NCBI GenBank assembly: GCA_014803525.1
Contig: JAAVBP010000009.1
Span: 5,995 to 69,994, forward strand
DNA length: 64,000 nucleotides
Origin: a bacterium
GTDB taxonomy: Bacteria > Pseudomonadota > Alphaproteobacteria > Rs-D84
Direction of reading: 5' to 3'
This document shows, piece by piece, positions 6,648-27,874 of the stretch. Position numbers and translations under genes: made by a program. The notes below the pieces were generated by a model, which saw only the letters and a program-made list of their open reading frames with translations, did not search any database and was not told the origin of the DNA. Every line of letters starts with the position of its first letter. Positions within the stretch are counted from its first letter, which is position 1.

Positions 6648-6654
6648 TAAATTT

Positions 6655-6713: not shown

Positions 6714-6889
6714 GCAAGCAGGTCGAACCGCCGCAAAAAGGCAGACGAACGTATGCCGGTTTGCATCAGCAAATTTTGCAAGGTCGGCGAAGCCAATCCT
6801 GCAGGGGCACCCAGCATGGCTAACAAATAATTTTTTTACTATTGAAAAAAAATTGTATTTCACATAAACTAATGCATTGAACAGCAGAG

Positions 6890-7099: not shown

Positions 7100-7126
7100 T
7101 TGATGCACAAAAAAAGGGGGACATCA

Positions 7127-7990: not shown

Positions 7991-8101
7991 TAGCCAACAC
8001 AACCGCACCACCAAGGACAAAAAAGCGTTTCAAAATCCTGTTGAATAAAGTTCTGGTTTTCAGTAAGATACCATAAACAAAACCTGAGAAGAGAACCAGT
8101 C

Positions 8102-10608: not shown

Positions 10609-11904
10609 TTACTCATCAGTGTCAGCAACCACAACACCTAAATTTTCCGCACTCAGCTGACCCATCGCAGCCAACACCGCAAAATACGCCGCCACCTGAC
10701 CATGGCGGGCCCGCGCCAATGCAACCCGCGAATTCAACAGTTCCTGTTCCGCATTCAGCACATCCAGGACCGTTCTGCGTCCACGCGATTGTTCCGCACG
10801 CGTCCCATCTAACGCCAATTTATTTGCATCAACCGTGGCATTCGCCGCCGTTATCGCATACGTTTGTGCGTCATACGTATTCCACGCCTGATGCAATTGT
10901 TCTATAATTATACGACGCATGTCAATAGCCCTGTTCTGGATCCCGGCAACGGTACTGCGAACCTTGTCCACATTTGCAGAAGCCGTTCCCCGATCATACA
11001 GTGGCAAACTGACATAAACGCCAACGCGGCCATCACGCAATTTATCCGCAATAGGAATGTCATTTATCTGCATTGCAGACGCCTTGACATCAACCGACGG
11101 CAATCTGGACGCACGCGCAACAGTTATGCTTTCACGGGCGGCGGCCTCTTGCGCGGCCAACGCGACTAAGACTGGATGATGTTTTATGGCATATTCCTCT
11201 GCCGAATCCACCGATGCCGGAAACAGGTGCTGAACGCGTGCCAGACTGATATCCGTATATTTTTTTTCATCTTTACCATATATTCTTTTAAATGTCTCTA
11301 TTGCATTATCATATTCGGCACGCGCATTGTTGGTTTGATACTTGGCACTTTCCAGGCGGGCAGACGCCTGGGCCACATCGGTTGATGTCAGCGCCCCAAC
11401 CTGTTGCCGTGCCACACATTGATCATAATATTGCTGCAAAACGCGCTGATTATTTTTGGATAAATCCATTACTTCCTGGGCATTTAATACATTTATATAT
11501 GCATTTATCGCATCTAAAAAGACACTTTGCTGGGTCGCATACAATGACGCCGTACTGGCGGCAAGATTACTTTTGGCACCCTTTATTTTTGCGATTGTTG
11601 AAAATCCTTGGAAAATATTTTGTTGGAACGTTGCACCAAATTCAGTGGGCGTGGTATCAAACGTTTGGTCAAATACTTTGCTGCGCGCCAACCCCGCATT
11701 TGCATTCACCCCCAGGTACGGTCGTGAACCCGTCCGCGCCAAATCCAAGTCTGCATTGGCACCATCTACCGCCGCACGAGATTCCGATATAACCGGATTT
11801 GAATCATATACTGATTGCAATGCAGCATACATATCCGCACGCGCCACGCACGGCATCATCCCAATAATAAATAACCCCAGACAAAATGTTATTTTCATGT
11901 TCAT
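10609..11904 (-). CDS. TolC-family outer-membrane efflux protein
   Basis: Signal peptide, two-repeat alpha/beta architecture, and a typical TolC N-terminus (LQSVYDSNPVISESRAAVDGANADLDLAR). Confidence 0.85.
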   Translation of the reverse strand: MNMKITFCLGLFIIGMMPCVARADMYAALQSVYDSNPVISESRAAVDGANADLDLARTGSRPYLGVNANAGLARSKVFDQTFDTTPTEFGATFQQNIFQGFSTIAKIKGAKSNLAASTASLYATQQSVFLDAINAYINVLNAQEVMDLSKNNQRVLQQYYDQCVARQQVGALTSTDVAQASARLESAKYQTNNARAEYDNAIETFKRIYGKDEKKYTDISLARVQHLFPASVDSAEEYAIKHHPVLVALAAQEAAARESITVARASRLPSVDVKASAMQINDIPIADKLRDGRVGVYVSLPLYDRGTASANVDKVRSTVAGIQNRAIDMRRIIIEQLHQAWNTYDAQTYAITAANATVDANKLALDGTRAEQSRGRRTVLDVLNAEQELLNSRVALARARHGQVAAYFAVLAAMGQLSAENLGVVVADTDE

Positions 11905-11919
11905 CCTCCCATTTCTTTA

Positions 11920-13011
11920 TTACAAAGTTGTTTTAAATTTTTTAATCGCAATTATCCATACGCCAATTCCAACAATCACCATCACAAACGCATGACAGGC
12001 AAAATAAGACCAATCAGGCCCCTTTAAAATAATACTGCGCACCATATAGGAATAATGGCTTAGCGGATTTATCTGGCTGATGTACTGCAAAATCAACGGC
12101 ATATTTTCCGTCGGCACCAAGGCTCCAGATAACATCAAAGCCAAAAACGCAACAATAACAATTCCCAGCAGTGCCTGTTGCTGGTTCCGGGTATATGCAG
12201 CCAACAAGACCGCAACGGCGGACGCCGGCACACAAAATGCCAAAAATCCCAAAACAAACATTAATCCCGAGCCTATAAATGGCAAATGAAATACAATTAA
12301 TCCCATAAATAAAATCGACAGCATTATCAAAAATGACATCAAAATATACGGAACCACCTTGCCCACGATAATATCATACTTTGATATCGGATAGGACATC
12401 AGGGTTTCAATGGTGCCACTTTCTTTTTCTTTGGCAATTGAAATTGTTATCAAAACCAAGATTGCAATAAATACCAATATTGCAATCATCGCCGGCACCA
12501 TAAACCATTTGGTATTTAATTGTGGATTAAACAATATTCGTATATCAAATACAATCGGCTGGGCGGCCGGGGCAATATTTGATTCCAACATAGCATGCGC
12601 GGCAACACCTTGCAGATACGCCTCTATGCTTTGCGCCTTTAAAATGTTCATTGAATCTATTAAAACCTGGACCACGGCACCATCACGCATTCCACCACGG
12701 GTTAGCCCTCCATCCGGCGCAACAATTGCAACATCGGCCGCGCCTGTTTGCACCGCGCGAACTGCATCTTTGTCTGTATCCGGCGCCCGCACAAACCACC
12801 CAGAACCAATGGCATGGTTATAAATTTTTTCTATCATAACGTCATTTGTACCAGAATCCACTGCCAGACGCAGGTTTTGCGCCTCTAACGTAATTGCGCC
12901 AGACAACACAACCAACTGTACCGCTGGCATTATCATAACCGCCGCCATTAATACCGGATCACGCAACAGCGCGATAGTTTCCTTCTTTAAAAAGCCAAAA
13001 AACTTTTTCAT
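11920..13011 (-). CDS. ABC-2 family transporter permease (YbhR/YbhS-like)
   Basis: A large periplasmic loop followed by six C-terminal transmembrane segments. Its start overlaps the upstream gene by 4 nt. Confidence 0.8.
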   Translation of the reverse strand: MKKFFGFLKKETIALLRDPVLMAAVMIMPAVQLVVLSGAITLEAQNLRLAVDSGTNDVMIEKIYNHAIGSGWFVRAPDTDKDAVRAVQTGAADVAIVAPDGGLTRGGMRDGAVVQVLIDSMNILKAQSIEAYLQGVAAHAMLESNIAPAAQPIVFDIRILFNPQLNTKWFMVPAMIAILVFIAILVLITISIAKEKESGTIETLMSYPISKYDIIVGKVVPYILMSFLIMLSILFMGLIVFHLPFIGSGLMFVLGFLAFCVPASAVAVLLAAYTRNQQQALLGIVIVAFLALMLSGALVPTENMPLILQYISQINPLSHYSYMVRSIILKGPDWSYFACHAFVMVIVGIGVWIIAIKKFKTTL

Positions 13012-14126
13012 TCCAATGTCCTTTTAAACCGCATTAGACATAAAACCATCAACACCAATGCCAAAACCACCAACATTACAAAAGGCACCCATAAATCCGC
13101 AATTGAACTGCCCTTTAGGAATTGATCGCGCGTTATATCCATATAAAATCGCGCCGGAAACATCGATGAAAATAATTGATATCCGCGACTCATATATTCC
13201 ACCGGAAAGAAAAATCCAGACAGCACGATGGTTGGCAACAACCCAATTATACACGCAAATTGGATCGCAACCTCTTGCTTGTGCGTTGAAACCGATATAA
13301 ATAACCCTATTTCTAAATAACCCAAGATAAACAGTAATGTCGCCAATATCAATGTTGCATAATTCCCCATAAACGGTACCCCAAACACAACACGCGCAAC
13401 AACAAACACCAAAACAAATCCGACAAAACTTAAAATCGCATATGGTAAAACCTTGCCTATTATTATTTCCAGCGTGGTCGCCGGTGTAGACAACAGCATT
13501 TCCATAGAACCACGTTCCCATTCACGACAGACCGTCAATGTCGTCAACATTATTGCCACCAACGCAATTATTACCGCCGATAATCCCGGCACAGAAAACC
13601 ATCTGGAATTCAATTCAGGGTTAAACAAATATCGTGTTTTAAAAGACAATCCACGCACCGCAATCGGCGCATCCAATATCTTGGCTGTCGCAATGCGATT
13701 AATCGTATTCATGTAATTTGTCACCGCCATAACAGACGAATTATCCGTTCCATCCAACAGGATTTGTACATGCGCCACACCACCACCCAAGACATCTTTT
13801 TCAAATCCGGTTGGAATTGAAACCATGGCACGCGCATTCTCGTCGACAATATCATCAAAACCCTGCTCTGGATTATCTATTGCATACGGATGAAAATAAT
13901 TTGAACTGGCAAAGGTTTCCATCAATCTGCGTGAACTTTCCGTACGATCAGCATCATGATACGCCATATCAATGGATCGGACATTAAATTCTATGGAATT
14001 CCCCAATATCAATACGATTGCCAGCGGTAACATCAGTGCCATCAGCAACGTGAACGGATCACGAAATATATGCTTAAATTCCTTTGAGAAAATAGCACGT
14101 GCCCGGCGCACGGAAAATCGTGTCAT
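13008..14126 (-). CDS. ABC-2 family transporter permease (second copy)
   Basis: Same architecture as 11920..13011. Overlapping start and stop. Confidence 0.8.
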   Translation of the reverse strand: MTRFSVRRARAIFSKEFKHIFRDPFTLLMALMLPLAIVLILGNSIEFNVRSIDMAYHDADRTESSRRLMETFASSNYFHPYAIDNPEQGFDDIVDENARAMVSIPTGFEKDVLGGGVAHVQILLDGTDNSSVMAVTNYMNTINRIATAKILDAPIAVRGLSFKTRYLFNPELNSRWFSVPGLSAVIIALVAIMLTTLTVCREWERGSMEMLLSTPATTLEIIIGKVLPYAILSFVGFVLVFVVARVVFGVPFMGNYATLILATLLFILGYLEIGLFISVSTHKQEVAIQFACIIGLLPTIVLSGFFFPVEYMSRGYQLFSSMFPARFYMDITRDQFLKGSSIADLWVPFVMLVVLALVLMVLCLMRFKRTLE

Positions 14127-15031
14127 CGATTATCACCTTCTACCAGTTTTATAAAAACATCCTCTAACGACGGGGATATTTTCGTAATGTCAAAATCAGC
14201 CTTGTATTTCATCAACGCGCGCGATACATTCACATTAGTATGAAATTTAACATGCCAATTACGACCATACGGCTCACACATTTCCATGTCTTTGTCCGCG
14301 ATTAACATTGCACCACCGCGCGGTGCAAAGTTGTATAACGTATCCCCAAACGCAGTGCGTTTTAATTCCGCGGGCGATGCCGCTGCAACAATCTGTCCCG
14401 CGCGCATCAACGCTATACGGTTACAATTTTCCGCCTCGTCCATATAATGCGTTGTAACAAAGACCGTTTTTCCAGCCGCGGCCAAATCTTGAATCAGCCG
14501 CCAAAATCTGTTCCGCGCAACAGGCGCCACACCGGCGGTCGGTTCATCTAAAAATATAATTTTAGGGTCATGCAATAATGACACACACAATGCAACCTCT
14601 TGCTTTATCCCACCAGGCAAATCCTTGACAACCGTATTTAAATTTTCTGAAAAACCGATAAAATCCAGTAATTTGGCACGATTGGACATGTATACATCAC
14701 GTGATAATCCGCGCATCGCCGCCGCAAAATCAAAGTTTTCCCCAACCGACAGGCCATCATATAACGTAAAACGTTGGGACATATAACCGACCTTTTGCTT
14801 TATTATATTTTCGCGTCCCGGAATAAATTCCGCCCCGTCAATGATAACCTTGCCGCGACTGGCCGGCAACAGTCCACACAACACGCGGATCGTAGTCGTC
14901 TTGCCCGCGCCATTCGCCCCCAAAAATCCAAATATTTCCCCAGGCGCAACACTGAACGAAACATCGCGCACGGCATAAAAGTCCCCAAATATTACAGACA
15001 AATTGCGAACATCAACAATCGGTTCTGTCAT
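14123..15031 (-). CDS. ABC transporter ATP-binding protein
   Basis: Walker A GANGAGKTT, signature motif and Walker B IIFLDEPTAG. Confidence 0.85.
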   Translation of the reverse strand: MTEPIVDVRNLSVIFGDFYAVRDVSFSVAPGEIFGFLGANGAGKTTTIRVLCGLLPASRGKVIIDGAEFIPGRENIIKQKVGYMSQRFTLYDGLSVGENFDFAAAMRGLSRDVYMSNRAKLLDFIGFSENLNTVVKDLPGGIKQEVALCVSLLHDPKIIFLDEPTAGVAPVARNRFWRLIQDLAAAGKTVFVTTHYMDEAENCNRIALMRAGQIVAAASPAELKRTAFGDTLYNFAPRGGAMLIADKDMEMCEPYGRNWHVKFHTNVNVSRALMKYKADFDITKISPSLEDVFIKLVEGDNR

Positions 15032-15756
15032 CGCACACCCCCGCGCACCAAAAATAATTCATCAAAATTACGCACATCATATTGCCGCAGCAAATCAACC
15101 GGCGCCCCCGTATCCAGAACACGCCCCGATTCCATTAACACAACATCACTGCAACGTTCGGCCTCGTCCATGTATGCGGTGGTCAATATTATCAACATAC
15201 CCTTTGATAAAGATGCATGTAACAGGCTCCAAAATTCGCGCCGACTAATTGGATCAACACCGTTTGTAGGCTCGTCCAACAACATAACCCGCGGCGATCG
15301 CAGCAATGCGCACATCAACCCCAGCTTTTTATACATCCCCCCCGACAGATTCCCTGCCGGTCTGTCCAAAAACTTTTCCAATCGCGTCAGTTGTAGCAAC
15401 TCTTGCGTGCGGGATTTAAACTCCGCATCACTGATACCATACAACTGCTTAAAGAAATCTAAATGTTCCGCCACCGACAGATCCGCATACAAACTTTGAC
15501 TTTGTGGCATGTACGCGATATTGCCACTAAAATCTGCAAATTTTGTTTTACGACCATCAACCAGATATTCTATATCACCAGCGCCCGCCTGCATCAAATG
15601 CAACATTATTCGAAACAGCGTTGTTTTTCCTGCACCCGCCGGCCCAATAACACCATACAGACGCCCTGTTTCAAAATGCATCGACACATTATCCAATGCC
15701 CGCACCGACTTGAAATCTTTGATCAGATTCGAAATATTTATTTCAATTTTATTCAT
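15028..15756 (-). CDS. ABC transporter ATP-binding protein
   Basis: Walker A GPAGAGKTT, signature LSGGMYKKLGL and Walker B VMLLDEPTNGVD. Confidence 0.85.
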   Translation of the reverse strand: MNKIEINISNLIKDFKSVRALDNVSMHFETGRLYGVIGPAGAGKTTLFRIMLHLMQAGAGDIEYLVDGRKTKFADFSGNIAYMPQSQSLYADLSVAEHLDFFKQLYGISDAEFKSRTQELLQLTRLEKFLDRPAGNLSGGMYKKLGLMCALLRSPRVMLLDEPTNGVDPISRREFWSLLHASLSKGMLIILTTAYMDEAERCSDVVLMESGRVLDTGAPVDLLRQYDVRNFDELFLVRGGVR

Positions 15757-16555
15757 TTCCCAGACTGCTTTCGATTGTCATCCCGGCCTTTAACGCCAAA
15801 TCTGAATTATCGAAACGAACCTTTATCCCATATACCAGACGTGTTCGTTCTGCCCGCGTCTGAACATTTTTCGGGGTAAATTCTGCCTGTTCATTAATCT
15901 TGATAATTTTACCATGAAATTTACGATCGGGGGCCTCTGGCAATATACCAACCACACTGTCCCCAACACGCAATTGATACAGCATGTTATATGGCACATA
16001 AAAATAAGCCCATATTTCATAAGGATTGGCCAACGACAACAAAACCGTACCTGGGGCTACAACCTCGCCCGGTTCACGAAATCGCGTCACCACAACACCG
16101 TCTGTTGGGGCCGTCACCTGGCACCACCCCAGTTTTAAATCGTTATCTTGTTTATTACGTGTTAAAACATCAAATTCTGCCTGGGACATATGTCCACGTT
16201 CGGTCAATGCACGCGCACGATCAAAATCATTATCTATCTGCGTCGCCAATATTTTATATGTATCACAACTAAGTTCCATTAAGGTTTGCCCACGCACAAC
16301 CATATCACCTTCGGCAACATATATATCTGAGATATCAGATGCCACACGCGCAGTCATCATGACCTTGGTGGTTTCCAGCGTCCCCGCATACATAAACGGC
16401 TTTGCCGACATAAAATATTTTATTCCAACCGCAATCGCACACACCAACGCAACCGCGGCAACAATATACGCCATTCGACGTGCTTTCTTTTTATTGGCAA
16501 TATTTTCATCCGTATACTGCACGGACGTTACAGTATCCTTTTTTCCCTTTGGCAT
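15749..16555 (-). CDS. HlyD-family membrane-fusion (periplasmic adaptor) protein
   Basis: N-terminal transmembrane anchor, coiled-coil hairpin and beta-barrel domain. It is first in an operon with the four ABC genes and TolC. Confidence 0.8.
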   Translation of the reverse strand: MPKGKKDTVTSVQYTDENIANKKKARRMAYIVAAVALVCAIAVGIKYFMSAKPFMYAGTLETTKVMMTARVASDISDIYVAEGDMVVRGQTLMELSCDTYKILATQIDNDFDRARALTERGHMSQAEFDVLTRNKQDNDLKLGWCQVTAPTDGVVVTRFREPGEVVAPGTVLLSLANPYEIWAYFYVPYNMLYQLRVGDSVVGILPEAPDRKFHGKIIKINEQAEFTPKNVQTRAERTRLVYGIKVRFDNSDLALKAGMTIESSLGNE

Positions 16556-16882
16556 TTCTCTCTCCTGGGTATTTATTAAAATACAGAATGTTTTTCCATT
16601 TTAATAAAAGCCACATATATTTCAAGCAAAATTCACACAAAAATAACAGAGAATCCGAGTTAGCAATTTATTTCTATTACAAGGATACACGCAGGCTCGC
16701 ACCGCAACCGAGAGATCTGTTCAAACAGGACAAACAACAGTTTGCGTTCGAAAACAAGTAGGTGAGACAAATGCAATGTAGTCGAACCGTTACGGTTTCC
16801 ACGCAGACGCGAAGCGTCGAGAGAATCATGGGGCCCGTCCTAACATAAAATTAAAACCGCCCATACGGCGGTTTTAATTTTA

Positions 16883-16895
16883 TGGTCGGGGCGAC
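16883..16895 (+). other. 13-nt copy of the tRNA-Pro 3-prime end (TGGTCGGGGCGAC), att-like direct repeat
   Basis: Identical to 26714..26726, the CCA end plus acceptor stem of tRNA-Pro on the plus strand. Confidence 0.5.
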
Positions 16896-17084
16896 TATGA
16901 GTAGTTGAGGACAAGCCCAAAGGGCGCCGTTCGAAAAGTCACGAATGCCGCGCAGTCTCGGCGGGCATAGCACGACGGACGAGCGACCTGTTCGAACACA
17001 AACCAACGATTTGTTGTTCGTATTCAGGATTGTCACAACCAAATTTAATAAAACGGGCACCACTTGGTGCCCGTTTTATTAAAC

Positions 17085-17093
17085 CTGGTCGGG
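17085..17093 (+). other. Second, shorter copy of the tRNA-Pro 3-prime end (TGGTCGGGG) directly 5-prime of an X repeat
   Basis: Same orientation as the tRNA-Pro end. Preceded by the hairpin AATAAAACGGGCACCACTTGGTGCCCGTTTTATT. Confidence 0.4.
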
Positions 17094-17448
17094 GTGAAAA
17101 CAAGTAGGCAAGACAAGCAAAGCGCAGTCTAGCCGTCACGGTTTCCCCGCAGGCACGAATGTGCCGAGGGACACGTTCGAACATAGCAAACGACAGTTTG
17201 CGTTCGAATCATGGATCCGTCCTAACATAAAATTAAAACCGCTCATGCGGCGGTTTGAATTTTATGGTCGGTCAGTATTATGTTGCTACGAAACGAATAC
17301 AGGAACCCCATTTTCAGCGATTTACAGCGAATTTCGCACATCGCAACCACACAAAAACGCCATATTTCCGCACTTTTTATCCAAAAATCCAGTAAAATAA
17401 CAGGGAATTTATTATGTTATATCAAAAAAACAACCTATCTCTACAGAC

Positions 17449-20400
17449 TTATTTCAACTGGCGCAAATATTGTTTTATAAATGCTAGATTGTTCCTAAAA
17501 CCACCTAAACCGCCATCAGCATGAGTCTGTGGAGCATAGGGGAAATACTTGTTAATATCATTAATATCTATAGACTTAAAATCATTCAATGTCGCAACAA
17601 TACCTTGGCCTCCCAAACTTTCGCGTCCCATTGTTTCCAAGACCATTTCTGTATTTCTTAAATCACCAACTTCAGAATCCAAAATATTCGCAATTTGTTT
17701 TAATTCAACAGAATCATAGTGGCGAATAATATCATCACCGCCTTTATTGAACCAACCGTCGCGCCCAATACCGCCAAAGAATTCCCATTTACCGGTCGGA
17801 ACATTTGTTTTACCTGCGGTTCCCGTGGATATATAGAACGGTAATTTGATATCGCCAACTTTTACCATACATATTGCGCGCCCATGTATTGCGCCAACGT
17901 CACTAAGGCTTTCAATATATACTGGACGACCATGTATATCCCCCAAAGTACGACCAATTTTACTTTCCAAACTAGCGAGATTCGGATTTGAAATTGTGCG
18001 TGTTAAGGTACGGCCTCTGATGTTTAAGCCTTGTGCAATGGCATCATCACGCGTCATTGCAATTACGATATGGGGCGATGATTCACCATAACCAAGGGTA
18101 TCTAAGGCGACCGCAAAATCTCCTTTCGCAAAAGTAATATTTGCCATAGTTTCTGCAGTAGACGCTCTCATCGGGGACGATATATATACATTTTGATCTG
18201 CATATGTCTTATTTATGGGACCTGCCCTGGCCAAACGATTTTCAATAATCTGTCGATTGGGGGATGGCGCATTATTTGCGGGTTTGACTGTTGTGGCTGT
18301 TGCAGATTTAGTCGCACCAGCCGAATATTTCGGCTTCTGTATAAATGGGAGCAAGCTTTCATAGCTTGCTGAATCTTCTACTATTGCAACCATATATTGA
18401 TTACCGCGTTGTATTTTCCCAGCATAGATATTCTGTGCCTGCAGACGCGCAACTATTTTATCTGCCTCCTCTTCGGATGCGACGGCTTTACGGAACTGTC
18501 TGACACCAGCAGAATTTTGGTTGGCCGCAGATTCAAATAAATCATTCAGCCCCGTACGCGCACTCATATTATCAAGAGAGGTGTTTGTAGCACGGTTAGC
18601 AGATTTTAATCCGCTTAGATAATTTGTTATATCATCAGTGTTGCTTATAAACTGATAATTGCGCCCAGGTGTAATTTTCATATATCGATTAACCTCCTCA
18701 ACACTTATGGAACGAAAGTTTTCTATTACGGCCACTGGGCCACGCCCCCCCAAACTCTGACGCCCCAAGGTTTCCAAAACATATTCCGTATTTCGCAAAT
18801 CGCCAATCTTGTCATCTAACATTGTAGCAATTTGTTTTAATTCCTCAGACCCATAATGATTTAAAATATCGTCCAAATATCCCTTATTAAACCAACCAGA
18901 TTTCGGGTCAATTCCGGCAAAGAACTCCCATTTTCCTGTTGGAATATCCGTCTTGCCTGCTGTACCCGTGGATATATAGAATGGAATTTTTCGGTCACCA
19001 ACCTTTACCATGCATATCGGACGACCACTTATTACCCCAACATCATTAAGACTTTCAATATATACTGGCGTGCCATGTATATCACCTAATGTCTGACCAA
19101 TTTTACTATTCAATGTGGTCAGATTAGAATTGGAAATTTTACGCACTAATTTGTTGCCATTGACAGCTAGCCCTTGCGCTTCGGCATCAGCACGAGTCAT
19201 TGCGATTACTATCTCGTCCGCATTACTTGCTCCCTCTGTATTCAAACTTACCGCAAAATCCCCTTTAGCCCGAATGTGTCGTACAGCATCACTCGCATCA
19301 ACATTGGAGGCCGGCGCAGATATATATACATTATGTCCTTCATACACTTTGTTGACAGGACCAAGTTCTGCAATCTCGTCCTTAATAAATTCACGACTCA
19401 AAACGACGGGGTTCTCCGCCTTGCGTGCTTCTTCTGCTTTGCGAGCTTCTTCAGCTTTACGAGCTTCCTCGGCCTTGCGTGCTTCTTCAGCTTTACGCGC
19501 CTCTTCTGCTTTGCGTGCCTCTTCAGCTTTACGAGCTTCCTCGGCCTTGCGTGCTTCTTCAGCTTTACGCGCTTCTTCAGCTTTGCGAGCCTCTTCAGCT
19601 TTGCGAGCCTCTTCAGCTTTGCGAGCTTCCTCGGCCTTGCGTGCTTCTTCTGCTTTGCGTGCTTCTTCTGCTTTACGAGCTTCCTCGGCCTTGCGTGCTT
19701 CTTCTGCTTTACGAGCTTCCTCGGCCTTGCGTGCTTCTTCAGCTTTGCGAGCCTCTTCTGCTTTACGAGCATCGGTGGCTACTTCAGACTCACGATGTGC
19801 CTTGGATACATCATCAGCCTGGCGTTCCGCAACAACGGCCGTTTCAGCATTATTAACAGCATTCGCATTATCAGCGACATCGCCTGCACGGGATGCCGCG
19901 CGGACGGTATCATCCGCGTGGGATGCAGCACCGGCCGCACCGCGTCCCCCATTGCGCAATGCTGCGGTGGCACGCGGCAGTTTCTTAACACCCCAGCTGA
20001 CCACGCTCTTTATAATACTGGCCAATTGCAGTGTTAATCCAACCGCACGCCAAATCTCTTCGGGCTGCCATGATGACATTCCCTTATTATTTGCACCGGT
20101 AGATGTGCCGTTTTTCATTAAATCTTTATAAAACCGTGAATTTGGTTGTATCAACCCAGCCAAACGTGCCAATTCGTTATCAATTCCATTTACAACCGCA
20201 TCTGGCAAATCATTTGCCAAATCAGCCATACGCTGTAAATCACGTTTCAGCATACTTTCCGCGCACGATGCATCGTTGCACTTTCTGCTCTCTGCCAGAA
20301 ATTCATCACCGGCATTTTGCATACGGCGCGTAGCTTCAAATTCTATTGCGGCACCGGCTGTTTCCACTGCCAGTAACGCCAATGCCGGCGCGCCAGCACC

Positions 20401-22371
20401 CCCGGTTGCCACAGTCAACACCACGCCAGCCGTCGCACCTGCTGCAATAATCAACAATTGTTCGTTGTTTTGTAAATCTTTTGCATCCTCAGCACTGGGC
20501 ATACGACAAACCTCGCCATCCCAATATATAGTTTTACATTTTGCACATGTTGCAGCATTTGTTGCCATTAACCTGTTGCACGCCTCCTTGCCCAGGTACA
20601 TACATTCGCGACCGTTATACTGGCCCCCTAGCACCTTGCAATCTATATTTTGCAGACTGCCTTTGTGCAGAGCGTTCTCAAATTCCGACATATCGTCAAA
20701 TACAAAGTCAACCTCTTGATTGCCATTAATAGTGCAACGCAACACATCATCCGTGGACCCCTTGACACTATGCCCTTCAATCTTTGACATTTGACGTGGG
20801 TTTTGAACACAAGAAAAGCTTTTTACGCCACTTTTAACGTTCTGTACATATTTACGCAAACTGCCCTCTATTGTTGGGACCGCCTGAAACTGGATAGCAC
20901 CGGAATAAAAATAATACGAATCAATGCCCGGGATTTCTTTGATTTTATTCTTGCCGCCGCTGTCACCGCCAATTGTAACAAAGACACACTTTCCATTTTC
21001 CCACTTTACGTTATACCCAAGCTTTTTAGCGGTTTTTGCGAAGTTACCATTACACGTTGCAGCAGATATTTTTGTACACTCATTTATCCCCACGCCGCCA
21101 TATATTCCATGGCAAATTGAATACATTACCGATGTCTGAATCATTCCATCAAAAGATTCCTTCACATCATCGAATTTAAATTCGTAATAAACCACCCCGT
21201 CTGTTGTAGCGCATTTTATATAATCGTCATTCCAACTGGTTCGACGATCATTTTGACATACAATTGTATTGCCGTGTTTTACCCGCGCATATTCCTGGGC
21301 TAGTGCAATCGCCTGCATTATCTGAATATTTGTGCTGGAAAAGGCATCAGTTATGCAATATTCTTTCTTGCCGGTTTTGCCTTTGTCTGCACCACAAACC
21401 GCGCGATACATATTACTGTGCTGAAATTCGTCTGTTCCTGGATTACAGACACACTGGTTCTTTGAATGCTGAATAATACTGCCTGTATGTTTACAGTTAT
21501 TTGTATTTGCGTGTTGCTTGCAAAACGCAGTACACAACGCTAATGTATTATTTTGCGATGTTTCCGGATGCATACTGGTGGGACATGCAACGTTTTTGGC
21601 AGCACGCGCCATAGATTCCTTGGCTGCATCAACCTCTGTCGTTTGGGCGTTACAGATACATTCTTTGGTACTGTGCCGCATAACAACATTTGTCACCGCA
21701 CAATTTTCGCGTGTACCCTTGGCCTTGCAAAAGTCGAGACATTTAGCAGATGTATTATTGTCTTTGTTTTCTTTGTGTATGCTGCGCGCACAAAGTGGTG
21801 TTCCAACGGGTATAGGCGTATTGCACGCGCCACCACGCAAGTCATAATTTCCTTTGCACACCAACGCCATACAGGTACAACTGTAACTTTCGTTACGTTG
21901 AAATACAACCTCGCCCATGGCGATATGCGAAGAAGTACATATATCCCCAACACGGGTTTTATCTGTAATAGAGCTTAATTTGTTCGGATTTTTACCATTT
22001 TCATCCAATCCAGGACAAAATCCACCAAGCGCATTTTCATCTACTTCATTGCCGGTATTATTCAACAGTGCCGTCACAAAATTCCGACAGGTTTCAAAGC
22101 CGTTTGCGTGATATGTATTCAGGCCACCCGCACGGCATATTGCAAACAGGTCTGCGATTGATACGGCACCAGTTTCCGGATTCATCAATGTAATATACTT
22201 TTGCGCCATTGCTATCTGACGTTTATCATCAGTAATAAAATCCGGTATCGTAGCCGCCAGATTTTCAGCCGTAAATATATATTTTTGTTCGGCATCCGCA
22301 TAAGTCTTGGGCGCACCAAATGCCGACACTATCATAATCAGTGATAAAAACGCCAGGGCTATTTTCTTCAT
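17449..22371 (-). CDS. Giant secreted/surface multidomain protein (1640 aa) with a Cys-rich N-terminal part, a Gly/Ala-rich hydrophobic segment, about 20 KAEEAR repeats and a tandemly duplicated ~280-aa C-terminal domain
   Basis: Signal peptide MKKIALAFLSLIMIVSAFGAPKTYA. Two ~55-aa Cys modules (C..FCK.....NC...CNxxT.E). Hydrophobic LLIIAAGATAGVVLTVATGGAGAPALALLAV. C-terminal domain A (~aa 1000..1290) and domain B (~aa 1400..1646) share GDFAV, IVIAMTRxDA.AQGL, GDIHGxPVYIESL, ICMVKVGD, PFYISTGTAGKT, PTGKWEFF and GDLRNTE.VLET. The start is set to MKK at 22371; the track ORF starts 6 codons upstream. Confidence 0.8.
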   Translation of the reverse strand: MKKIALAFLSLIMIVSAFGAPKTYADAEQKYIFTAENLAATIPDFITDDKRQIAMAQKYITLMNPETGAVSIADLFAICRAGGLNTYHANGFETCRNFVTALLNNTGNEVDENALGGFCPGLDENGKNPNKLSSITDKTRVGDICTSSHIAMGEVVFQRNESYSCTCMALVCKGNYDLRGGACNTPIPVGTPLCARSIHKENKDNNTSAKCLDFCKAKGTRENCAVTNVVMRHSTKECICNAQTTEVDAAKESMARAAKNVACPTSMHPETSQNNTLALCTAFCKQHANTNNCKHTGSIIQHSKNQCVCNPGTDEFQHSNMYRAVCGADKGKTGKKEYCITDAFSSTNIQIMQAIALAQEYARVKHGNTIVCQNDRRTSWNDDYIKCATTDGVVYYEFKFDDVKESFDGMIQTSVMYSICHGIYGGVGINECTKISAATCNGNFAKTAKKLGYNVKWENGKCVFVTIGGDSGGKNKIKEIPGIDSYYFYSGAIQFQAVPTIEGSLRKYVQNVKSGVKSFSCVQNPRQMSKIEGHSVKGSTDDVLRCTINGNQEVDFVFDDMSEFENALHKGSLQNIDCKVLGGQYNGRECMYLGKEACNRLMATNAATCAKCKTIYWDGEVCRMPSAEDAKDLQNNEQLLIIAAGATAGVVLTVATGGAGAPALALLAVETAGAAIEFEATRRMQNAGDEFLAESRKCNDASCAESMLKRDLQRMADLANDLPDAVVNGIDNELARLAGLIQPNSRFYKDLMKNGTSTGANNKGMSSWQPEEIWRAVGLTLQLASIIKSVVSWGVKKLPRATAALRNGGRGAAGAASHADDTVRAASRAGDVADNANAVNNAETAVVAERQADDVSKAHRESEVATDARKAEEARKAEEARKAEEARKAEEARKAEEARKAEEARKAEEARKAEEARKAEEARKAEEARKAEEARKAEEARKAEEARKAEEARKAEEARKAEEARKAEEARKAEEARKAEEARKAENPVVLSREFIKDEIAELGPVNKVYEGHNVYISAPASNVDASDAVRHIRAKGDFAVSLNTEGASNADEIVIAMTRADAEAQGLAVNGNKLVRKISNSNLTTLNSKIGQTLGDIHGTPVYIESLNDVGVISGRPICMVKVGDRKIPFYISTGTAGKTDIPTGKWEFFAGIDPKSGWFNKGYLDDILNHYGSEELKQIATMLDDKIGDLRNTEYVLETLGRQSLGGRGPVAVIENFRSISVEEVNRYMKITPGRNYQFISNTDDITNYLSGLKSANRATNTSLDNMSARTGLNDLFESAANQNSAGVRQFRKAVASEEEADKIVARLQAQNIYAGKIQRGNQYMVAIVEDSASYESLLPFIQKPKYSAGATKSATATTVKPANNAPSPNRQIIENRLARAGPINKTYADQNVYISSPMRASTAETMANITFAKGDFAVALDTLGYGESSPHIVIAMTRDDAIAQGLNIRGRTLTRTISNPNLASLESKIGRTLGDIHGRPVYIESLSDVGAIHGRAICMVKVGDIKLPFYISTGTAGKTNVPTGKWEFFGGIGRDGWFNKGGDDIIRHYDSVELKQIANILDSEVGDLRNTEMVLETMGRESLGGQGIVATLNDFKSIDINDINKYFPYAPQTHADGGLGGFRNNLAFIKQYLRQLK
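19407..19771 (-). repeat. Coding 18-nt tandem repeat, about 20 copies, translating to (KAEEAR)n
   Basis: GCTTTGCGAGCTTCTTCA-type units with synonymous wobble variation inside the giant ORF. The plus-strand ORFs 19115..20131 and 19174..20037 are antisense artefacts of this repeat. Confidence 0.9.
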
Positions 22372-23324
22372 TTCAATACCCCCGTGCATTTTTCAGCGAT
22401 GGTTGCCACTTTCTTTATCGCGCTGATTTGCGTTGCATTAAATACCGTCGCCGTCGCGGATGCCACCGTGGTTGCACCAGACAGGACATTTGCCGCCGTG
22501 TTTAGATTTTTTTCTTTCTGTTTGCCCGCATCCGTATTATCGTTGCGCGTTTTATCCGTATTTGCGATTGCCGATGTTACCGTACCCGCCGCACCGGTTG
22601 TTGCGCCGACAATCGATGATATCATCGCACCTTTGGCCCGATTGTTTATCTTTGACACATCAACATAATCGTATTCAGCGCAGGCAGCGATAATCTCTTG
22701 CGCCTCTGATACGTCTTCGCCATTGACGCGTGCCTGCATCATAGACTGGCGCAGCTGACTTACCGACGCTTTGCAATCATCAATTTGCGCCTTTAAATCC
22801 TTATCGACCTTATTATTTCCGGCGATAATCGCGCCCGCCACATTGGTCGCAGTACTGCCCGCAATCAGGCCAGTTCGCCAATTACCCAGACGCTTTGATT
22901 GTTTGGTCAGTTTTTCAATTTCATCTTCGATGTCCCGCTTTTCGTCTTTGTTGGCGTCATAGTAATCTTGCATCCGGGCCAATATTTCCGCCCGATTGAT
23001 TTCCGGTGTCGGATTTCCGCGTGTTATTTCTTTTAATTTTTCCAACTCTTTTTCAAGATTTGCAATTTGTTTATCTTTGTTCACCTTTACAATACCAACA
23101 ACGGTTGCACCCGCACCGGCCGCCGTACCAACCGCAGTCACCGCCGTGTTTATTCCAGCCATCTTTTTCAAATCGGCTAATTCATCATCAATGCCAACAC
23201 ATGCAGTATATGTCGCCCGCAACGCATCATCCAATGACAAAATATCAGCATGCGCAACAAGCGGCATAAAACAACACAATAAAGCAACGAAACGCTCTCT
23301 CATTTTTCCCTGGCCGACTGGCAC
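22368..23324 (-). CDS. Secreted coiled-coil protein with four Gly/Ala/Thr-rich hydrophobic segments
   Basis: Signal peptide MRERFVALLCCFMPLVAHA. Segments AVTAVGTAAGAGATVVGIV, TGLIAGSTATNVAGAIIAG, ISSIVGATTGAAGTVTSAIA and LSGATTVASATATV alternate with charged coiled coils. It lies immediately upstream of the giant gene and its stop overlaps the giant gene's start. Confidence 0.6.
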   Translation of the reverse strand: MPVGQGKMRERFVALLCCFMPLVAHADILSLDDALRATYTACVGIDDELADLKKMAGINTAVTAVGTAAGAGATVVGIVKVNKDKQIANLEKELEKLKEITRGNPTPEINRAEILARMQDYYDANKDEKRDIEDEIEKLTKQSKRLGNWRTGLIAGSTATNVAGAIIAGNNKVDKDLKAQIDDCKASVSQLRQSMMQARVNGEDVSEAQEIIAACAEYDYVDVSKINNRAKGAMISSIVGATTGAAGTVTSAIANTDKTRNDNTDAGKQKEKNLNTAANVLSGATTVASATATVFNATQISAIKKVATIAEKCTGVLK

Positions 23325-23406: not shown

Positions 23407-24003
23407 TCATATTTTTGAAACAAGGAACCTGGTTATCGTCGGTGGACTGACCCGAATTTTACGTGCAATTTCCCGCTTTGATACACCTGCCGCATACATA
23501 TCCAGAATTAAATTCTCGTGTCCATCTAATATATGGGTCGGATTACGCCCGCCCGCCGGTCGCCCCAGTTTTACACCCCGCATTTGCAGGACGGATAGTG
23601 CCTCCTTGGTTCGCTGGGCGATTAAATTTCTCTCTATTTCTGCGGACAGGCCGAATGCAAACGCTAAAACCTTTGACTGAATATTGTCCCCCAATTCATA
23701 CCCATCTTTGACCGTGTACAGGCGTGCGCCAATTTTCATACAATGTTCCAAAATCCGCATAATCATGAACATCTTTCGCCCAAGACGCGACAGTTCGCTG
23801 CATATTATCACGTCACCCGGTTGCAATCGGCGCAGCATACCACCTAGCGCACGTTCCTCTGGCTCTTTTGTCCCAGATATGCCGGAATCTTCTATATATT
23901 TATCTATGCAAATTCCCAGTTTCGCGGCTTTCGCCTCTATCCCTAGTTTTTGATTTGCGCAGTCTTGTTTGTCGGTTGAAACCCGAATATAGCCATATAT
24001 CAT
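23407..24003 (-). CDS. Small serine recombinase (resolvase/invertase, Hin/TnpR type)
   Basis: MIYGYIRVSTDKQ catalytic serine motif. SELSRLGRKMFMIMRILEHC. C-terminal HTH. About 60% identical to the 57479..58114 protein. Confidence 0.85.
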   Translation of the reverse strand: MIYGYIRVSTDKQDCANQKLGIEAKAAKLGICIDKYIEDSGISGTKEPEERALGGMLRRLQPGDVIICSELSRLGRKMFMIMRILEHCMKIGARLYTVKDGYELGDNIQSKVLAFAFGLSAEIERNLIAQRTKEALSVLQMRGVKLGRPAGGRNPTHILDGHENLILDMYAAGVSKREIARKIRVSPPTITRFLVSKI

Positions 24004-24449
24004 TCAGTGCTCCTTTTATTATCAAATCCAAAGAAATGGTTGCCGGACATTTTGTGGCCGCATATTTCTGTCGCAATCGCCGACAATGTTGAATAAGGCT
24101 TGCCGTTATATGTAAACCTATCATCTGCCAGAACGCGCACGACATGTTCCGTACCACGGAACTTTTTCACTAATTCAGTTCCTGGCTTTAAATGATATTT
24201 AACCTTGTGCGAGCGTCCGCTATATAACTCCGGATCCTTGGCATATTTGTACAAGCGGCTCAAATGTCGTGATTCTATTTTGTATCCCATTTGTTCGCAT
24301 TGAATTTTGTGCCATAAAGGTTTCATCTGGGGCTTGCCGCCAGTAAAGTAATGTCCCCATAATTGCGTTATCTTTTCCTTAGGCATCGCCCGTAAATCCG
24401 CCATATTTTTAGGCAATTCGCCGCAATATTTTCTTAATGCCATAGCCAT
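24000..24449 (-). CDS. Hypothetical protein translationally coupled to the resolvase (possibly a DUF2924-type recombinase partner)
   Basis: 149 aa. Its stop overlaps the resolvase start (ATGA). Ribosome-binding site AAAAGGAC. The DUF assignment is from memory of the recombinase-adjacent family, not verified. Confidence 0.45.
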   Translation of the reverse strand: MAMALRKYCGELPKNMADLRAMPKEKITQLWGHYFTGGKPQMKPLWHKIQCEQMGYKIESRHLSRLYKYAKDPELYSGRSHKVKYHLKPGTELVKKFRGTEHVVRVLADDRFTYNGKPYSTLSAIATEICGHKMSGNHFFGFDNKRSTE

Positions 24450-24559: not shown

Positions 24560-26191
24560 ATGCAAATTGTTAACTGTGCCGTATATGTTAGAAAATCCAG
24601 CGAACGCGGATTAGACCAAGAATTCAACAGTCTGGACAACCAGGAATTGGCCTGTAAATCATATATCGCATCCCAAACATTCCAAGGATGGCAGTATTTC
24701 AAAACATATAGCGATGGCGGTATCTCTGGCGGGACAATGGCGCGACCGGGGCTGCAAGAAATGCTGAGTGATATAAAAACAGGCAAGATTCAATGCGTAT
24801 TGGTGTATAAAATTGACCGCCTGTCACGCAGCATTTATGACTTTAAGAGCATGATGAAAAAGGATTTTGAACCACATAACTGCAATCTGGTCAGCATTAC
24901 ACAGAGTTTTGACACAAACACAGCCATGGGGAAATTGACACTGAACATGCTACTGTCGTTTGCAGAGTTTGAACGAGAGGTTGCCAGTGAACGCGTCCGT
25001 GATAAAATGCGCGCAACTAAATCAAAAGGCCTGTGGGTCGGTGGGGTGCCGCCGCTGGGCTATGACGTACAATTTGGAAAATTGGTTCCAAATGAAACCG
25101 AGGTTCCATTGGTCAAAACCATATTTGAAACGTATCTAAACAGCACCGGTATACTGGACTGCCGCAATCGTATTGCCGCACTTGGCATTCGGGGCAAAGC
25201 CTGGCAAACCCGAAAAGGCGAAATGCGTGGTGGCCGGGAAATGACCGCGAATATCATTGAACGGGTTTTGAAAAATCAAATTTACCTGGGCAAACTGCCC
25301 AACAAATCAACCGGCGAAGTCTTTGATGGTAAACACCCAGCCATAATCGACAAAACGCTGTTTGACGCAGTCCAAGCTAAAATCCAAGCAAACAACAATC
25401 ACCCAGGTTCCGGATATCGCCTTGGGACGGCATTATTACACAACAAAATACAGACCGCAGACGGAACCATCCTAAAGAATAAATCCGGCCAGAAAAACTA
25501 TAACTCACACCGGCGGTACAGATACTATTACGGTGGCGGCGTATCCCTGCCTATGGGGGATATTGACGCCATTGTAATCGATACAATAAAAAAGTTCCTG
25601 GATTCAGACCTGGGGTGTTTTAATGATGAGAAACGACTATGCTTCAAACAAACCGCGTTTTCACCAGAGCTTATCGCCCCAATGATTGCCAAGATTGTGT
25701 ATTATTGCCAAAAACTGGTAATATTTATAAACATTGCAGACCTAGGATACCTGACCCAATTCCGCAACACAGGTCCTATAAATACAAATAACCATCCAAT
25801 GCCGTGTGCTATATCGGCCGATGGAAAATACGCCATAATTGAGACAGACGTTATTATATCCAGTCGAACATGCATAAACCATCGAAACAGTGGCGGCAGT
25901 CGGGATTTATTAACCAAAACCGAAAACGCAACAATGTTAATCAAGGCCCTGGGATACGCATGGAAATACAAGCAACAATACGAAAGCGGAACCGGAATTC
26001 GTGAACTGGCCGAAACAGAAAAACGCGACCAGCGCACGATTTACAAATACTTAAATCTGGCATACCTGTCGCCACGGATTATCAATGATATCATGGACAG
26101 CAAAATCCCACCCCACATCAACCTGCAGACCTTGTTCCAGATTGCAAGTAAGTATGATAATTTCGCGGAACAGGAACGGGAGTTTTATTAA
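24560..26191 (+). CDS. Large serine recombinase
   Basis: Resolvase-type N-terminal domain (VYVRKSSERGLDQEFNSLDNQ, DRLSRS). Recombinase domain GLWVGGVPPLGYDV. Long C-terminal extension. GAGGAAAAAAAC ribosome-binding site. Divergent from the resolvase pair. Confidence 0.85.
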   Translation: MQIVNCAVYVRKSSERGLDQEFNSLDNQELACKSYIASQTFQGWQYFKTYSDGGISGGTMARPGLQEMLSDIKTGKIQCVLVYKIDRLSRSIYDFKSMMKKDFEPHNCNLVSITQSFDTNTAMGKLTLNMLLSFAEFEREVASERVRDKMRATKSKGLWVGGVPPLGYDVQFGKLVPNETEVPLVKTIFETYLNSTGILDCRNRIAALGIRGKAWQTRKGEMRGGREMTANIIERVLKNQIYLGKLPNKSTGEVFDGKHPAIIDKTLFDAVQAKIQANNNHPGSGYRLGTALLHNKIQTADGTILKNKSGQKNYNSHRRYRYYYGGGVSLPMGDIDAIVIDTIKKFLDSDLGCFNDEKRLCFKQTAFSPELIAPMIAKIVYYCQKLVIFINIADLGYLTQFRNTGPINTNNHPMPCAISADGKYAIIETDVIISSRTCINHRNSGGSRDLLTKTENATMLIKALGYAWKYKQQYESGTGIRELAETEKRDQRTIYKYLNLAYLSPRIINDIMDSKIPPHINLQTLFQIASKYDNFAEQEREFY

Positions 26192-26713: not shown

Positions 26714-26790
26714 TGGTCGGGGCGACATGATTCGAACATGCGACATCTTGCTCCCAAAGCAAGCACTCTACCAGACTGAGCTACGCCCCG
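26714..26790 (-). tRNA. tRNA-Pro (anticodon TGG), CCA encoded
   Basis: Minus-strand cloverleaf: CGGGGCG acceptor, D arm, anticodon stem CTTGC/GCAAG with loop TTTGGGA, T arm GCATG-TTCGAAT-CATGT, acceptor CGCCCCG, then A and CCA. Confidence 0.9.
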
Positions 26791-26887: not shown

Positions 26888-27874
26888 ATGGTAAGGATTG
26901 TCTGCTTTTTTACATTGATAATATCGTCTATTGCGCCGGTGATGGCCGTGACCGCACGCAATACCAGCGCACGCAGCGCAACCGCTTCACCTGCCGCCGC
27001 ATACAATTACAATTATATGTATCCATACCTAAACAATCAGATGAAAACGGATTTAAACCCCGGCGTCACACCCGCCCAGGGCAGCAATCCTATCAATGTT
27101 ATAACACGCACGGAAAAACTGTCATCAGATCGACGCGTTGTCCCACGCACCGCACGCAGTGCCACAAAAACCGGCACATCCGCAACCACGACACGCAGCG
27201 CCACCCCCACAGGCGGCACAACATATGCCGCACGCAACGCCCAGTCATCATCCACACGTCGCGTCGTCGCACGCAGTGGCACAGCATCCGCCCCAATACG
27301 CAGTACACGCACCGACGCAAGCAAGGTCCAAGCCATCACAAACAACATTAACACCAATGTGTATACCACCACAGACACAGCAATATCGTCCGCCAGATGC
27401 TTGGCAGACTATATAGAATGCATGAACGGGTATTGCGCACGCGAAAAAACGGCATATAACCGTTGCTATTGCAGCACAAAATTGACCCAGATAGACGCCC
27501 AATACCAGCCGGCCATAGATAGCCTAATAAAACAGATTTTACAACTGCAGAGTTCGAACACATGGTCCGAAGCCGAAATGAATCAATATTGGATGGATAC
27601 AATCGGCAAATATACAGGTGATAATTCATGGGCAAATCTGGACGAGGCATTAAATATCGACTGGGCCAACACGGAAAGTCGCGTCCGTGGAGCACAGGCA
27701 TTTGCAACCGGCCATGAATATTGTGCCCAGCATTTACGCGGTTGTGCATATATGGCATCAAACATGCGGGACGCATACCGTTCTGAAATCGCGCGCGATT
27801 GCGCATCATATGAATCCGGCCTGATGAAGATTAAAAATGCGGCCGAAAGTATAGTGGAGGCATACAGTGACTAA
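26888..27874 (+). CDS. Secreted hypothetical protein with a Ser/Thr/Arg-rich low-complexity region and a Cys-containing C-terminal domain
   Basis: Signal peptide MVRIVCFFTLIISSIAPVMAVTA. Repeated RSAT/TRSAT motifs. A possible sigma-70 promoter (TTGTCT-17-TACTAT) lies upstream. Confidence 0.55.
   Translation: MVRIVCFFTLIISSIAPVMAVTARNTSARSATASPAAAYNYNYMYPYLNNQMKTDLNPGVTPAQGSNPINVITRTEKLSSDRRVVPRTARSATKTGTSATTTRSATPTGGTTYAARNAQSSSTRRVVARSGTASAPIRSTRTDASKVQAITNNINTNVYTTTDTAISSARCLADYIECMNGYCAREKTAYNRCYCSTKLTQIDAQYQPAIDSLIKQILQLQSSNTWSEAEMNQYWMDTIGKYTGDNSWANLDEALNIDWANTESRVRGAQAFATGHEYCAQHLRGCAYMASNMRDAYRSEIARDCASYESGLMKIKNAAESIVEAYSD

Follow-up and report, generated by a model that had tools for sequence, protein, structure and literature searches.

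A giant putative envelope protein from an Rs-D84 alphaproteobacterium carries two copies of an undescribed domain whose core recurs in giant phage proteins

We analyzed a giant gene in a 64,000-nt stretch of DNA (the window) from an alphaproteobacterium of the order Rs-D84 (contig JAAVBP010000009.1); all coordinates are positions in this window. A single uninterrupted open reading frame (ORF) on the minus strand (17449..22389) encodes 1646 amino acids (aa), which we number from the ATG at 22389. The original prediction, made from the sequence alone, had bounded the gene at 22371. The ORF is real and its strand is minus, but it extends to 22389, and 22371 marks the ATG of Met7 (MKKIAL...), from which 1640 aa are read. 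This ATG shares bases with the TGA of the upstream ORF (ATGA; ..AAATGAAG..) and giant-gene homologues begin at the position equivalent to MKK, hence Met7 is probably the true start. An N-terminal extension MHGGIEM or MYGGIEM seemed to be conserved (window 22371-22389; homologues P0008 and P0011). It is probably an other-frame reading of the conserved C terminus of the upstream protein (..EKCTGVLK, then stop), and as such probably lies outside the giant protein. From N to C terminus we found a signal peptide, Cys modules, a Gly/Ala-rich stretch, repeats and two domain copies, i.e., the architecture that had been predicted. When the whole protein, its neighbours, 54 core members and 20 relatives were scanned with Pfam, NCBIfam and PHROG, no informative family for the giant protein emerged, only compositional matches on the repeat; PDB sequence searches with the whole protein or its N-terminal 798 aa and a tblastn search against PLSDB plasmids returned nothing useful.

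The N terminus reads as a Sec-type signal peptide (aa 7-31, MKKIALAFLSLIMIVSAFGAPKTYA/DA; 22297..22371, minus) with a hydropathy peak of 1.91. It is followed by a Cys-rich ectodomain, predicted to be exported, with 36 Cys (aa 32-640; 20470..22296, minus) that had no relative in PDB or Pfam. Two Cys modules of about 55 aa had been predicted here and were confirmed, each with 53 aa and six Cys: module 1 (aa 200-252; 21634..21792, minus) has the spacing C-x16-C-x3-C-x8-C-x13-C-x-C, and its local alignment with module 2 (aa 269-321; 21427..21585, minus) scored 129, compared with 31 +/- 6 and a maximum of 61 for shuffled sequences. Hydropathy and an alignment of 16 homologues delimited a membrane module (aa 641-802; 19984..20469, minus). 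It opens with the predicted Gly/Ala-rich hydrophobic stretch, a helical hairpin (aa 642-687) whose GxG[AS]P turn is conserved. Next comes an acidic loop, in which a CxxxxC motif (C704, C709) is likewise conserved, and a third hydrophobic segment (aa 779-801) precedes a K/R-rich stretch. Over the 16 homologues, the net charge was -8.2 for the acidic loop and +3.4 for the 15 residues past the third segment. Of 40 Cys, 38 lie in aa 1-710, the acidic loop holding the last conserved pair; the 936 residues past aa 710 contain two, neither conserved. With these membrane segments, the protein is doubtful as the secreted product originally described, and a membrane anchor fits better.

A low-complexity linker rich in Ala, Asp, Asn and Arg, read from the sequence (aa 803-875; 19765..19983, minus), forms the variable region of the family, where relatives hold unrelated repeats or low-complexity sequence. 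Next come 19 exact KAEEAR units (aa 876-989; 19423..19764, minus) plus one partial unit, matching the earlier count of about 20. Ten different 18-mers encode the 19 units, and all their differences are synonymous. The DNA repeats are thus not perfect, contrary to the earlier claim: Tandem Repeats Finder gave 80-86% matches for the 18-nt repeats, and the longest exact repeat in the tract has 53 nt at an offset of 72 nt. Because the DNA varies only synonymously, the KAEEAR peptide is under selection for its exact sequence; we found this repeat in no relative of the giant protein. Without perfect DNA repeats, the prediction of strain-to-strain length variation loses its basis, although such variation is possible via the exact repeats of up to 53 nt. 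With charge pairs E3-K7 and R6-E10 and Ala as the sole hydrophobic residue, (KAEEAR)19 fits the pattern of ER/K single α-helices, and from its composition we infer a spacer of this type with a length of about 18 nm.

The C-terminal part contains domain copy A (aa 1001-1262; 18604..19389, minus), with a conserved core at aa ~1094-1245 (18655-19110), and copy B (aa 1381-1646; 17452..18249, minus), with its core at aa 1475-1625 (17515-17967). All seven motifs listed in the original prediction occur once per copy, confirming two domain copies with a linker. This linker of ~118 aa (aa 1263-1380; 18250..18603, minus) contains a small α/β module (FRKAVASEEEADKIVARLQAQNIYAGKIQ...MVAIVED) that is also present in the relative P0018. 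The P0018 version matched the SPOR family PF05036 with 19 bits (E = 0.0019), below the 21-bit cut-off, and the window's protein gave no SPOR match (Pfam PF05036, >21 bits). In BLASTP, copies A and B were 57% identical (E = 2e-104). Over 260 aligned codons their nucleotides were 62% identical overall and 46% at third positions; 68-78% was reached in the conserved core only, so that the ~75% nucleotide identity stated before does not hold. Nonsynonymous and synonymous divergence (dN = 0.37, dS = 1.69; dN/dS ~0.22) shows that both copies are under purifying selection. Moreover, as synonymous sites are saturated at a dS of ~1.7, the duplication is old and not recent as had been thought. A neighbour-joining tree grouped A and B as sisters (59% identity), with the single domain of P0018 nearly as near (58% and 52%); copy A is as close to that domain (58%) as to copy B (59%). 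P0013 gained its own tandem duplication independently, and its two copies paired together in the tree.

In an alignment of the domain with 12 homologues, the invariant elements were R, PFYISTG, GK, TGKWEFF, G, F.KG, HY, E.K.IA, L, GD, R, G.G.V and N; positions conserved to at least 90% across 160 core instances were R, PFY.S.G..GK..V..G.W, G, W..K, Y, L..A..L, GD.R and N. The latter set is made up of aromatic and basic residues and Gly and includes neither a His nor a Cys. The supposedly invariant His and Cys hold between copies A and B only: in the 12 homologues, N, K, R, G or D takes the place of the GDIHG His, and L, V or M that of the ICMVKVGD Cys. AlphaFold2 models of copy B had mean confidence scores (pLDDT) of 87.5 for the whole domain and 93.6 for the core. 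We read either copy as a small α/β subdomain and then a core of ~90-130 aa, in which helices accompany an antiparallel β-sheet and the invariant Gly-rich loop (PFYxS[ST]GxxGK..V..GKW). The domain had been called unrecognised, and this was borne out: a search of PDB sequences with the core profile gave no match, Pfam and NCBIfam scans of 54 diverse core members no common family, and fold comparison no convincing match, whereby the absence of a known fold refers to solved structures only. We rejected a P-loop NTPase, as the core loop S-[ST]-G-x-x-G-K-x has a Ser at the first Gly of the Walker A motif GxxxxGK[ST]; furthermore, the residue past the Lys is not conserved and the model has no helix after the loop.

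Bacteria of the order Rs-D84 have genomes below 1 Mb and an exclusively fermentative metabolism and are predicted to be obligate symbionts or parasites (PMC12306168). The window encodes pyruvate:ferredoxin oxidoreductase (PFOR), enolase, Rho and similar housekeeping genes. When the C-terminal 654 aa were searched against 5.8 billion clusters, only 12 clusters were found, with 46-53% identity; the few with a named source were all metagenome-assembled genomes (MAGs) of Alphaproteobacteria or Pseudomonadota. A scan of GTDB with one genome per species yielded 22 loci, all from uncultured Alphaproteobacteria or Candidatus Enterousia of animal guts, and one such MAG shares the gene order of the window at 57-68% protein identity. 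The N-terminal ~810 aa, i.e., signal peptide, Cys-rich ectodomain and membrane module, are homologous across many MAG proteins (49% identity over 677 aa in P0016, 76% over the first 271 aa in P0021), and we refer to them as the chassis. In the family layout, the chassis is followed by a hypervariable low-complexity or repeat region, optional modules and the C-terminal domain. Most members of the chassis family still carry this same conserved domain. The chassis is almost tailless in P0164 (603 aa; a cluster of 46 member sequences) and has other C termini in P0168 (an HExxH motif, VAHENNHYLDE, with a weak SprT-like match) and in P0170-P0172. The same C-terminal domain is also borne by paralogues of ~460 aa without a signal peptide, which in ten MAGs occupy a fixed pta-X-ppdK locus between the genes for phosphate acetyltransferase and pyruvate-phosphate dikinase (PPDK; L004, L006-L008, L010, L011, L013, L014, L016, L018, L025). 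Across most of these MAGs the ~460-aa paralogue is 41-59% identical and PPDK 96-99%; judged by these identities, the paralogue evolves very fast beside an unusually conserved neighbour.

The core extends far beyond these bacteria. A profile search of 1.84 billion cluster representatives (clusters at 50% identity) found 554 representatives, of which 378 reached E <= 1e-10 and 49 reached E <= 1e-30. About 50 of the 554 hold the full domain of ~260 aa and make up the alphaproteobacterial family. The remaining ones align with profile positions ~120-206 alone, a ~90-aa core with the consensus GR.IV.V..G..IPFY.STG.GGK..VP.GKWYPFFGI..GW.NK....I..YY.S..LK..A..LD...GD.R, and occur in small proteins (150-270 aa) as well as in giants (2000-5800 aa). 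The only library family that core members share is phrog_32390 (function unknown), which matched 41 of 54 and was the only match of the small proteins; its hidden Markov model (HMM) gave no direct match to copies A and B of the window. With the consensus core, tblastn led to the 1957-aa gp039/gp38 of Cellulophaga phages phi17:2 and phi4:1; the consensus alone found these phages, and a single small phage protein had no match in INPHARED. In a single-sequence search, the family core profile matched aa 1692-1776 of phi17:2 gp039 with 45.9 bits (E = 2.9e-16). The label of gp039 as a structural protein comes from its GenBank annotation. Foldseek against BFVD returned two giant phage proteins (E = 3e-8 and 3e-7), one of them with an LT_GEWL domain.

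At least 213 viral stretches in IMG/VR encode the core. ORF sizes were taken from the best 80, where it lies in ORFs of at least 1000 aa in 56 cases and in complete small ORFs in 15. The small protein P0065 is encoded directly after an SPP1-type portal gene, with a 1096-aa gene on its other side, and the contig of P0061 also bears a terminase gene. P0066 has an ADP-ribosyltransferase domain directly upstream of the core and P0063 an RNase T domain. The contexts of the small phage proteins P0071, P0100 and P0072 were short or unannotated contigs without informative content, and PDB sequence searches with three phage giants gave nothing useful. From these searches, the core appears as a widespread, undescribed domain found mostly in giant phage proteins, of which one is annotated as structural and the others are tied to the virion only through adjoining head or packaging genes or fused domains. 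As a side observation, the phage contig of P0065 (L023) has a terminase large subunit (5455-7758) split by intein or homing-endonuclease domains (Hom_end_hint, faint LAGLIDADG) and also encodes SAM synthetase, LuxS and a DNA methylase.

Directly upstream of the giant gene, a partner gene (22368..23324, minus) encodes a product of 318 aa. In addition to a signal peptide, this product has coiled-coil stretches, four conserved Cys and four hydrophobic segments rich in Gly, Ala and Thr; a Pfam scan of it found no match. Homologues with 45-59% identity lie directly upstream of family genes in L012, L015, L017, L020 and L021, with the overlap kept. Gene order and overlap hence mark partner and giant gene as a conserved two-gene unit that is, by its sequence, translationally coupled. 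The partner was also considered as a split-off of the N-terminal module that is fused in P0015-P0018; we rejected this origin, since neither BLASTP nor an HMM built from six orthologues produced a significant match.

Beyond the partner follow genes for a resolvase (23407-24003, minus), a DUF2924 protein (24000-24449, minus) and a large serine recombinase (24560-26191, plus), all assigned by Pfam, before a tRNA-Pro(UGG) gene (26714..26790, minus) that bounds a variable segment. We conclude on variability from the syntenic MAG locus L005, where the content and spacing between an ABC-exporter operon and tRNA-Pro differ: 10.3 kb separate them in the window and 2.4 kb in L005, whose interval contains a MarR-like gene as well as another Cys-rich secreted protein, of 472 aa (7353-8771, plus). 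From this comparison, genes for exported Cys-rich proteins appear to have a hotspot next to tRNA-Pro. With a recombinase beside a tRNA gene and its absence from the syntenic L005 site, the segment has the marks of a tRNA-associated integrated island. No direct repeats were found flanking the variable segment; their absence is expected for serine recombinases. The operon of the giant gene thus lies in a variable segment that was probably integrated. Resolvase homologues (67% identity) occur near family genes in L001 and L002. The ORF next to tRNA-Pro on its other side (26888-27874, plus, 328 aa) had no Pfam match; it is conserved beside tRNA-Pro in L005 (58% identity), where the homologue has a signal-peptide-like start.

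Downstream of the giant gene, 900 nt (16556-17448) consist of non-coding duplicated modules with long terminator-like hairpins. Repeats of 64 nt (16750/17096), 45 nt (16708/17164) and 55 nt (16835/17217, 95% identical) were identified, the last forming a hairpin with arms of 22-23 nt that is terminator-like on both strands. One such long hairpin (17221..17271, minus) lies ~180 nt past the stop codon, with a second copy at 16839-16889, and a third hairpin is found at 17038-17089. Rfam at gathering thresholds recognized two tRNAs only in the whole window and nothing in these repeats, which may be a small mobile element or a small RNA. The stretch contains no candidate immunity gene, its longest same-strand ORF being an implausible Arg-rich one of 81 aa. 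The exporter operon, which is complete, follows immediately (10609-16555, minus), with an outer-membrane efflux protein, two ORFs of ABC-2 permease size, two ABC ATPases recognized by sequence motifs and an HlyD-like adaptor. As L005 lacks the insert but retains this operon, the operon is probably unrelated to the giant gene. Elsewhere in the window, a second giant ORF (34514-39787, plus, 1757 aa) combines a signal peptide with a long repetitive region rich in Asn, Gly and Thr and ends in ..YRF. It looks like an autotransporter-type surface protein, had no Pfam match at E <= 1e-4 and did not match the chassis, domain or partner profiles. Another ORF (50824-52380, minus, 518 aa) was likewise without Pfam match.

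Several observations bear on the topology of the giant protein. The charge bias, i.e., -8.2 in the acidic loop and +3.4 past segment 3, obeys the positive-inside rule when the N terminus is outside and the C terminus inside. In the relatives P0018, P0034 and P0165, HPD-containing segments resembling J domains were found in the tail after the membrane module. Pfam DnaJ matched P0165 with E = 0.0039, and when the three segments were aligned with five canonical J domains by hhalign, the probability was 93.7% (E = 1.9e-7). J domains act with Hsp70 and ATP, both of which are cytoplasmic, so that these segments point to a cytoplasmic tail. Likewise, the paralogues without signal peptide that bear the same domain argue for a cytoplasmic location, and we also counted the concentration of Cys before aa 710 for it. 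We therefore consider an N-out, C-in protein with three membrane segments and a cytoplasmic tail to be slightly better than an even bet. Some points weigh against this arrangement. In segments 2 and 3 hydrophobicity is only marginal (Kyte-Doolittle values of 1.24 and 1.14), and about two acidic residues lie within segment 2, hence the tail could be periplasmic. The window's own protein has no HPD or J-like segment, so that the J-domain argument rests on relatives. Moreover, at least one phage protein with the core also has a lytic-transglycosylase domain, which would fit a role in the envelope or periplasm.

We propose the following working model. A host-dependent gut alphaproteobacterium of the Candidatus Enterousia or Rs-D84 kind would make a modular envelope protein, whose Sec signal peptide exports a disulfide-rich ectodomain of ~600 aa, which probably contacts the partner or the host. 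The conserved three-segment membrane module would anchor the protein with its N terminus outside and its C terminus inside. In the cytoplasm, a tail of ~840 aa would then carry the rigid KAEEAR helix of ~18 nm, keeping the two old, separately conserved ~260-aa domain copies at the tail's end off the membrane. The core might bind or act on a ubiquitous phosphate-bearing ligand, e.g., a nucleotide, a nucleic acid or the head group of a lipid, and not on a protein restricted to one lineage. Ligand binding or catalysis of this sort is suggested by the extreme conservation across distant phages and bacteria and by a Gly-rich loop in which Ser, Lys, Tyr and Trp are invariant and an Arg nearly so, in the absence of conserved His or Cys; we put it forward tentatively and with considerable doubt. 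A yet more speculative extension, unlikely as it stands, is that the core is a new ligand-binding or catalytic fold in phage virion giants that acts in the infected cell, and that the gut Alphaproteobacteria Rs-D84 and Enterousia, as obligately partner-dependent bacteria, acquired it as the working end of fast-evolving giant envelope proteins and of soluble paralogues dealing with the cells they live on. For the main reading as a whole, i.e., a modular membrane-anchored envelope protein with a cytoplasmic tail bearing two domain copies, we estimate a probability of roughly 45%.

A different reading of the same anatomy is a periplasmic, TolA-like tether, where the hairpin returns the chain, the KAEEAR helix spans the periplasm in the manner of TolA domain II, and the domains and the SPOR-like module bind peptidoglycan or the outer membrane. 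The conserved turn of the hairpin and the CxxxxC behind it would suit such a design, as would a helix of ~18 nm, which is close to the width of the periplasm. Weak compositional matches to TolA and cell-wall-binding proteins, the SPOR match of the P0018 linker module and the LT_GEWL domain in one core-bearing phage protein point the same way, but the TolA and SPOR matches stay below threshold. Against a periplasmic tail stand the acidic loop before and the strongly positive stretch after the third segment, the J-like segments in three relatives with their requirement for Hsp70 and ATP, the paralogues that bear the domain without any signal peptide, and the scarcity of Cys past aa 710 (two nonconserved in 936 residues, compared with 36 in the exported part). 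We consider the tether unlikely on balance. Were the protein instead a delivered effector akin to polymorphic or AB toxins, the Cys-rich part would bind a target, the hairpin insert and the C-terminal cargo act in the target's cytoplasm, as phage-ejected proteins do. A chassis paired with differing C termini (none in P0164, HExxH in P0168, those of P0170-P0172, and J-like segments that could engage the target's Hsp70), a core characteristic of those phage virion proteins that probably pass into host cells, a recombinase-bearing variable segment and a short paralogue that evolves much faster than its neighbours could all be explained in this way. However, we found neither an outer-membrane component for secretion nor any known trafficking domain, the 900 nt downstream offer non-coding repeats and no immunity gene candidate, and Sec export would strand the hydrophobic segments in the producer's own inner membrane. 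Moreover, the C-terminal domain is the most conserved and not the most variable part of the family and also sits in proteins without signal peptide at the fixed housekeeping locus pta-X-ppdK. A delivered effector accordingly seems quite improbable to us.

The predominance of viral sequences among core-bearing proteins might also be taken to mean that a captured phage domain serves as a membrane-tethered decoy or exclusion factor against phages, binding the target of the phage domain. The position of the gene in a variable segment beside serine recombinases, with resolvase homologues near family genes in L001 and L002, would agree with such a capture. Yet many Rs-D84 genomes contain the family, some of whose paralogues occupy a fixed chromosomal locus, no gene with a known role in defence was noticed in the vicinity (no PADLOC search was made), and neither the large ectodomain nor the 318-aa partner would be given a role; we regard a decoy as very improbable. 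Finally, the original prediction had loosely likened each copy to a permuted papain-fold hydrolase of the LRAT or NlpC/P60 type, built on the GDIHG His and the ICMVKVGD Cys. The His-then-Cys order does occur in both copies, but neither residue is among the positions conserved to at least 90% in 160 instances, homologues carry other residues at both, and the predicted fold differs. Loss of the His and Cys in homologues is what the original prediction itself had named as refuting evidence, and we rejected the papain fold, giving it hardly any credence.

Rs-D84 and Enterousia bacteria are common in animal guts and thought to live off other cells; we know of no described mechanism by which they do so. 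A 5-kb gene with a conserved partner, from a multi-copy and fast-evolving family, is a strong candidate for the interface with the cells they live on. Domain family and protein architecture appear to be new, i.e., without known family or solved fold, and the functions proposed above are deduced from sequence comparison and models. With more than 500 clusters at 50% identity, the core family has no entry in Pfam or NCBIfam and no relative of solved structure. It marks giant proteins in many phages that have not been cultured, and such proteins are among the least understood parts of phage particles. Since the small core (~130 aa) is confidently modelled, its structure and ligand would annotate hundreds of phage and bacterial proteins.

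Compared with known systems, the giant protein combines familiar traits in an unfamiliar arrangement. To NlpC/P60 and LRAT enzymes, the likeness is limited to the His-before-Cys order within the two copies of this one protein, whereas the residues are not conserved and the predicted fold is unlike papain. As regards polymorphic toxins (CdiA, Rhs, MafB, MuF), their combination of a conserved N-terminal region with alternative C termini may have a parallel among the homologues, most of which still carry the same domain, and a location in a variable, recombinase-bearing segment is common to both. In contrast to these toxins, it has no known trafficking domain and no downstream immunity gene, its C-terminal domain is conserved and not hypervariable, and the same domain occurs in proteins without signal peptide. 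For the missing immunity gene and the conserved C-terminal domain we rejected a classical polymorphic toxin. DjlA-type J-domain proteins resemble the relatives P0018, P0034 and P0165 by a J-like tail segment, which bears on topology only; DjlA is small with a single N-terminal anchor, and the window's protein has no such segment. TolA domain II and other ER/K helices likewise have a long Lys/Arg/Glu/Ala run with opposite charges at i to i+3/i+4 between an anchor and a globular C-terminal part. TolA, however, is anchored N-terminally without an exported N-domain and has a domain III, whereas here the anchor is internal, after an exported domain of 600 aa, and the helix is probably cytoplasmic. 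As domain III gave no match in the giant protein and full-length TolA (tolA_full) matched with E = 0.93 in the repeat only, the similarity is compositional and we rejected an identity with TolA. The giants of phages phi17:2 (gp039) and phi4:1 (gp38) differ by having neither the α/β subdomain and C-terminal helices of the ~260-aa domain nor a signal peptide, Cys-rich ectodomain or membrane module, and their core is single-copy. They share the ~90-aa core with PFYxS[ST]GxxGK..G.WYPFFG..W..K. The relatives that can be demonstrated are unannotated ones only, namely PHROG 32390, phi17:2 gp039 and hypothetical proteins of MAGs.

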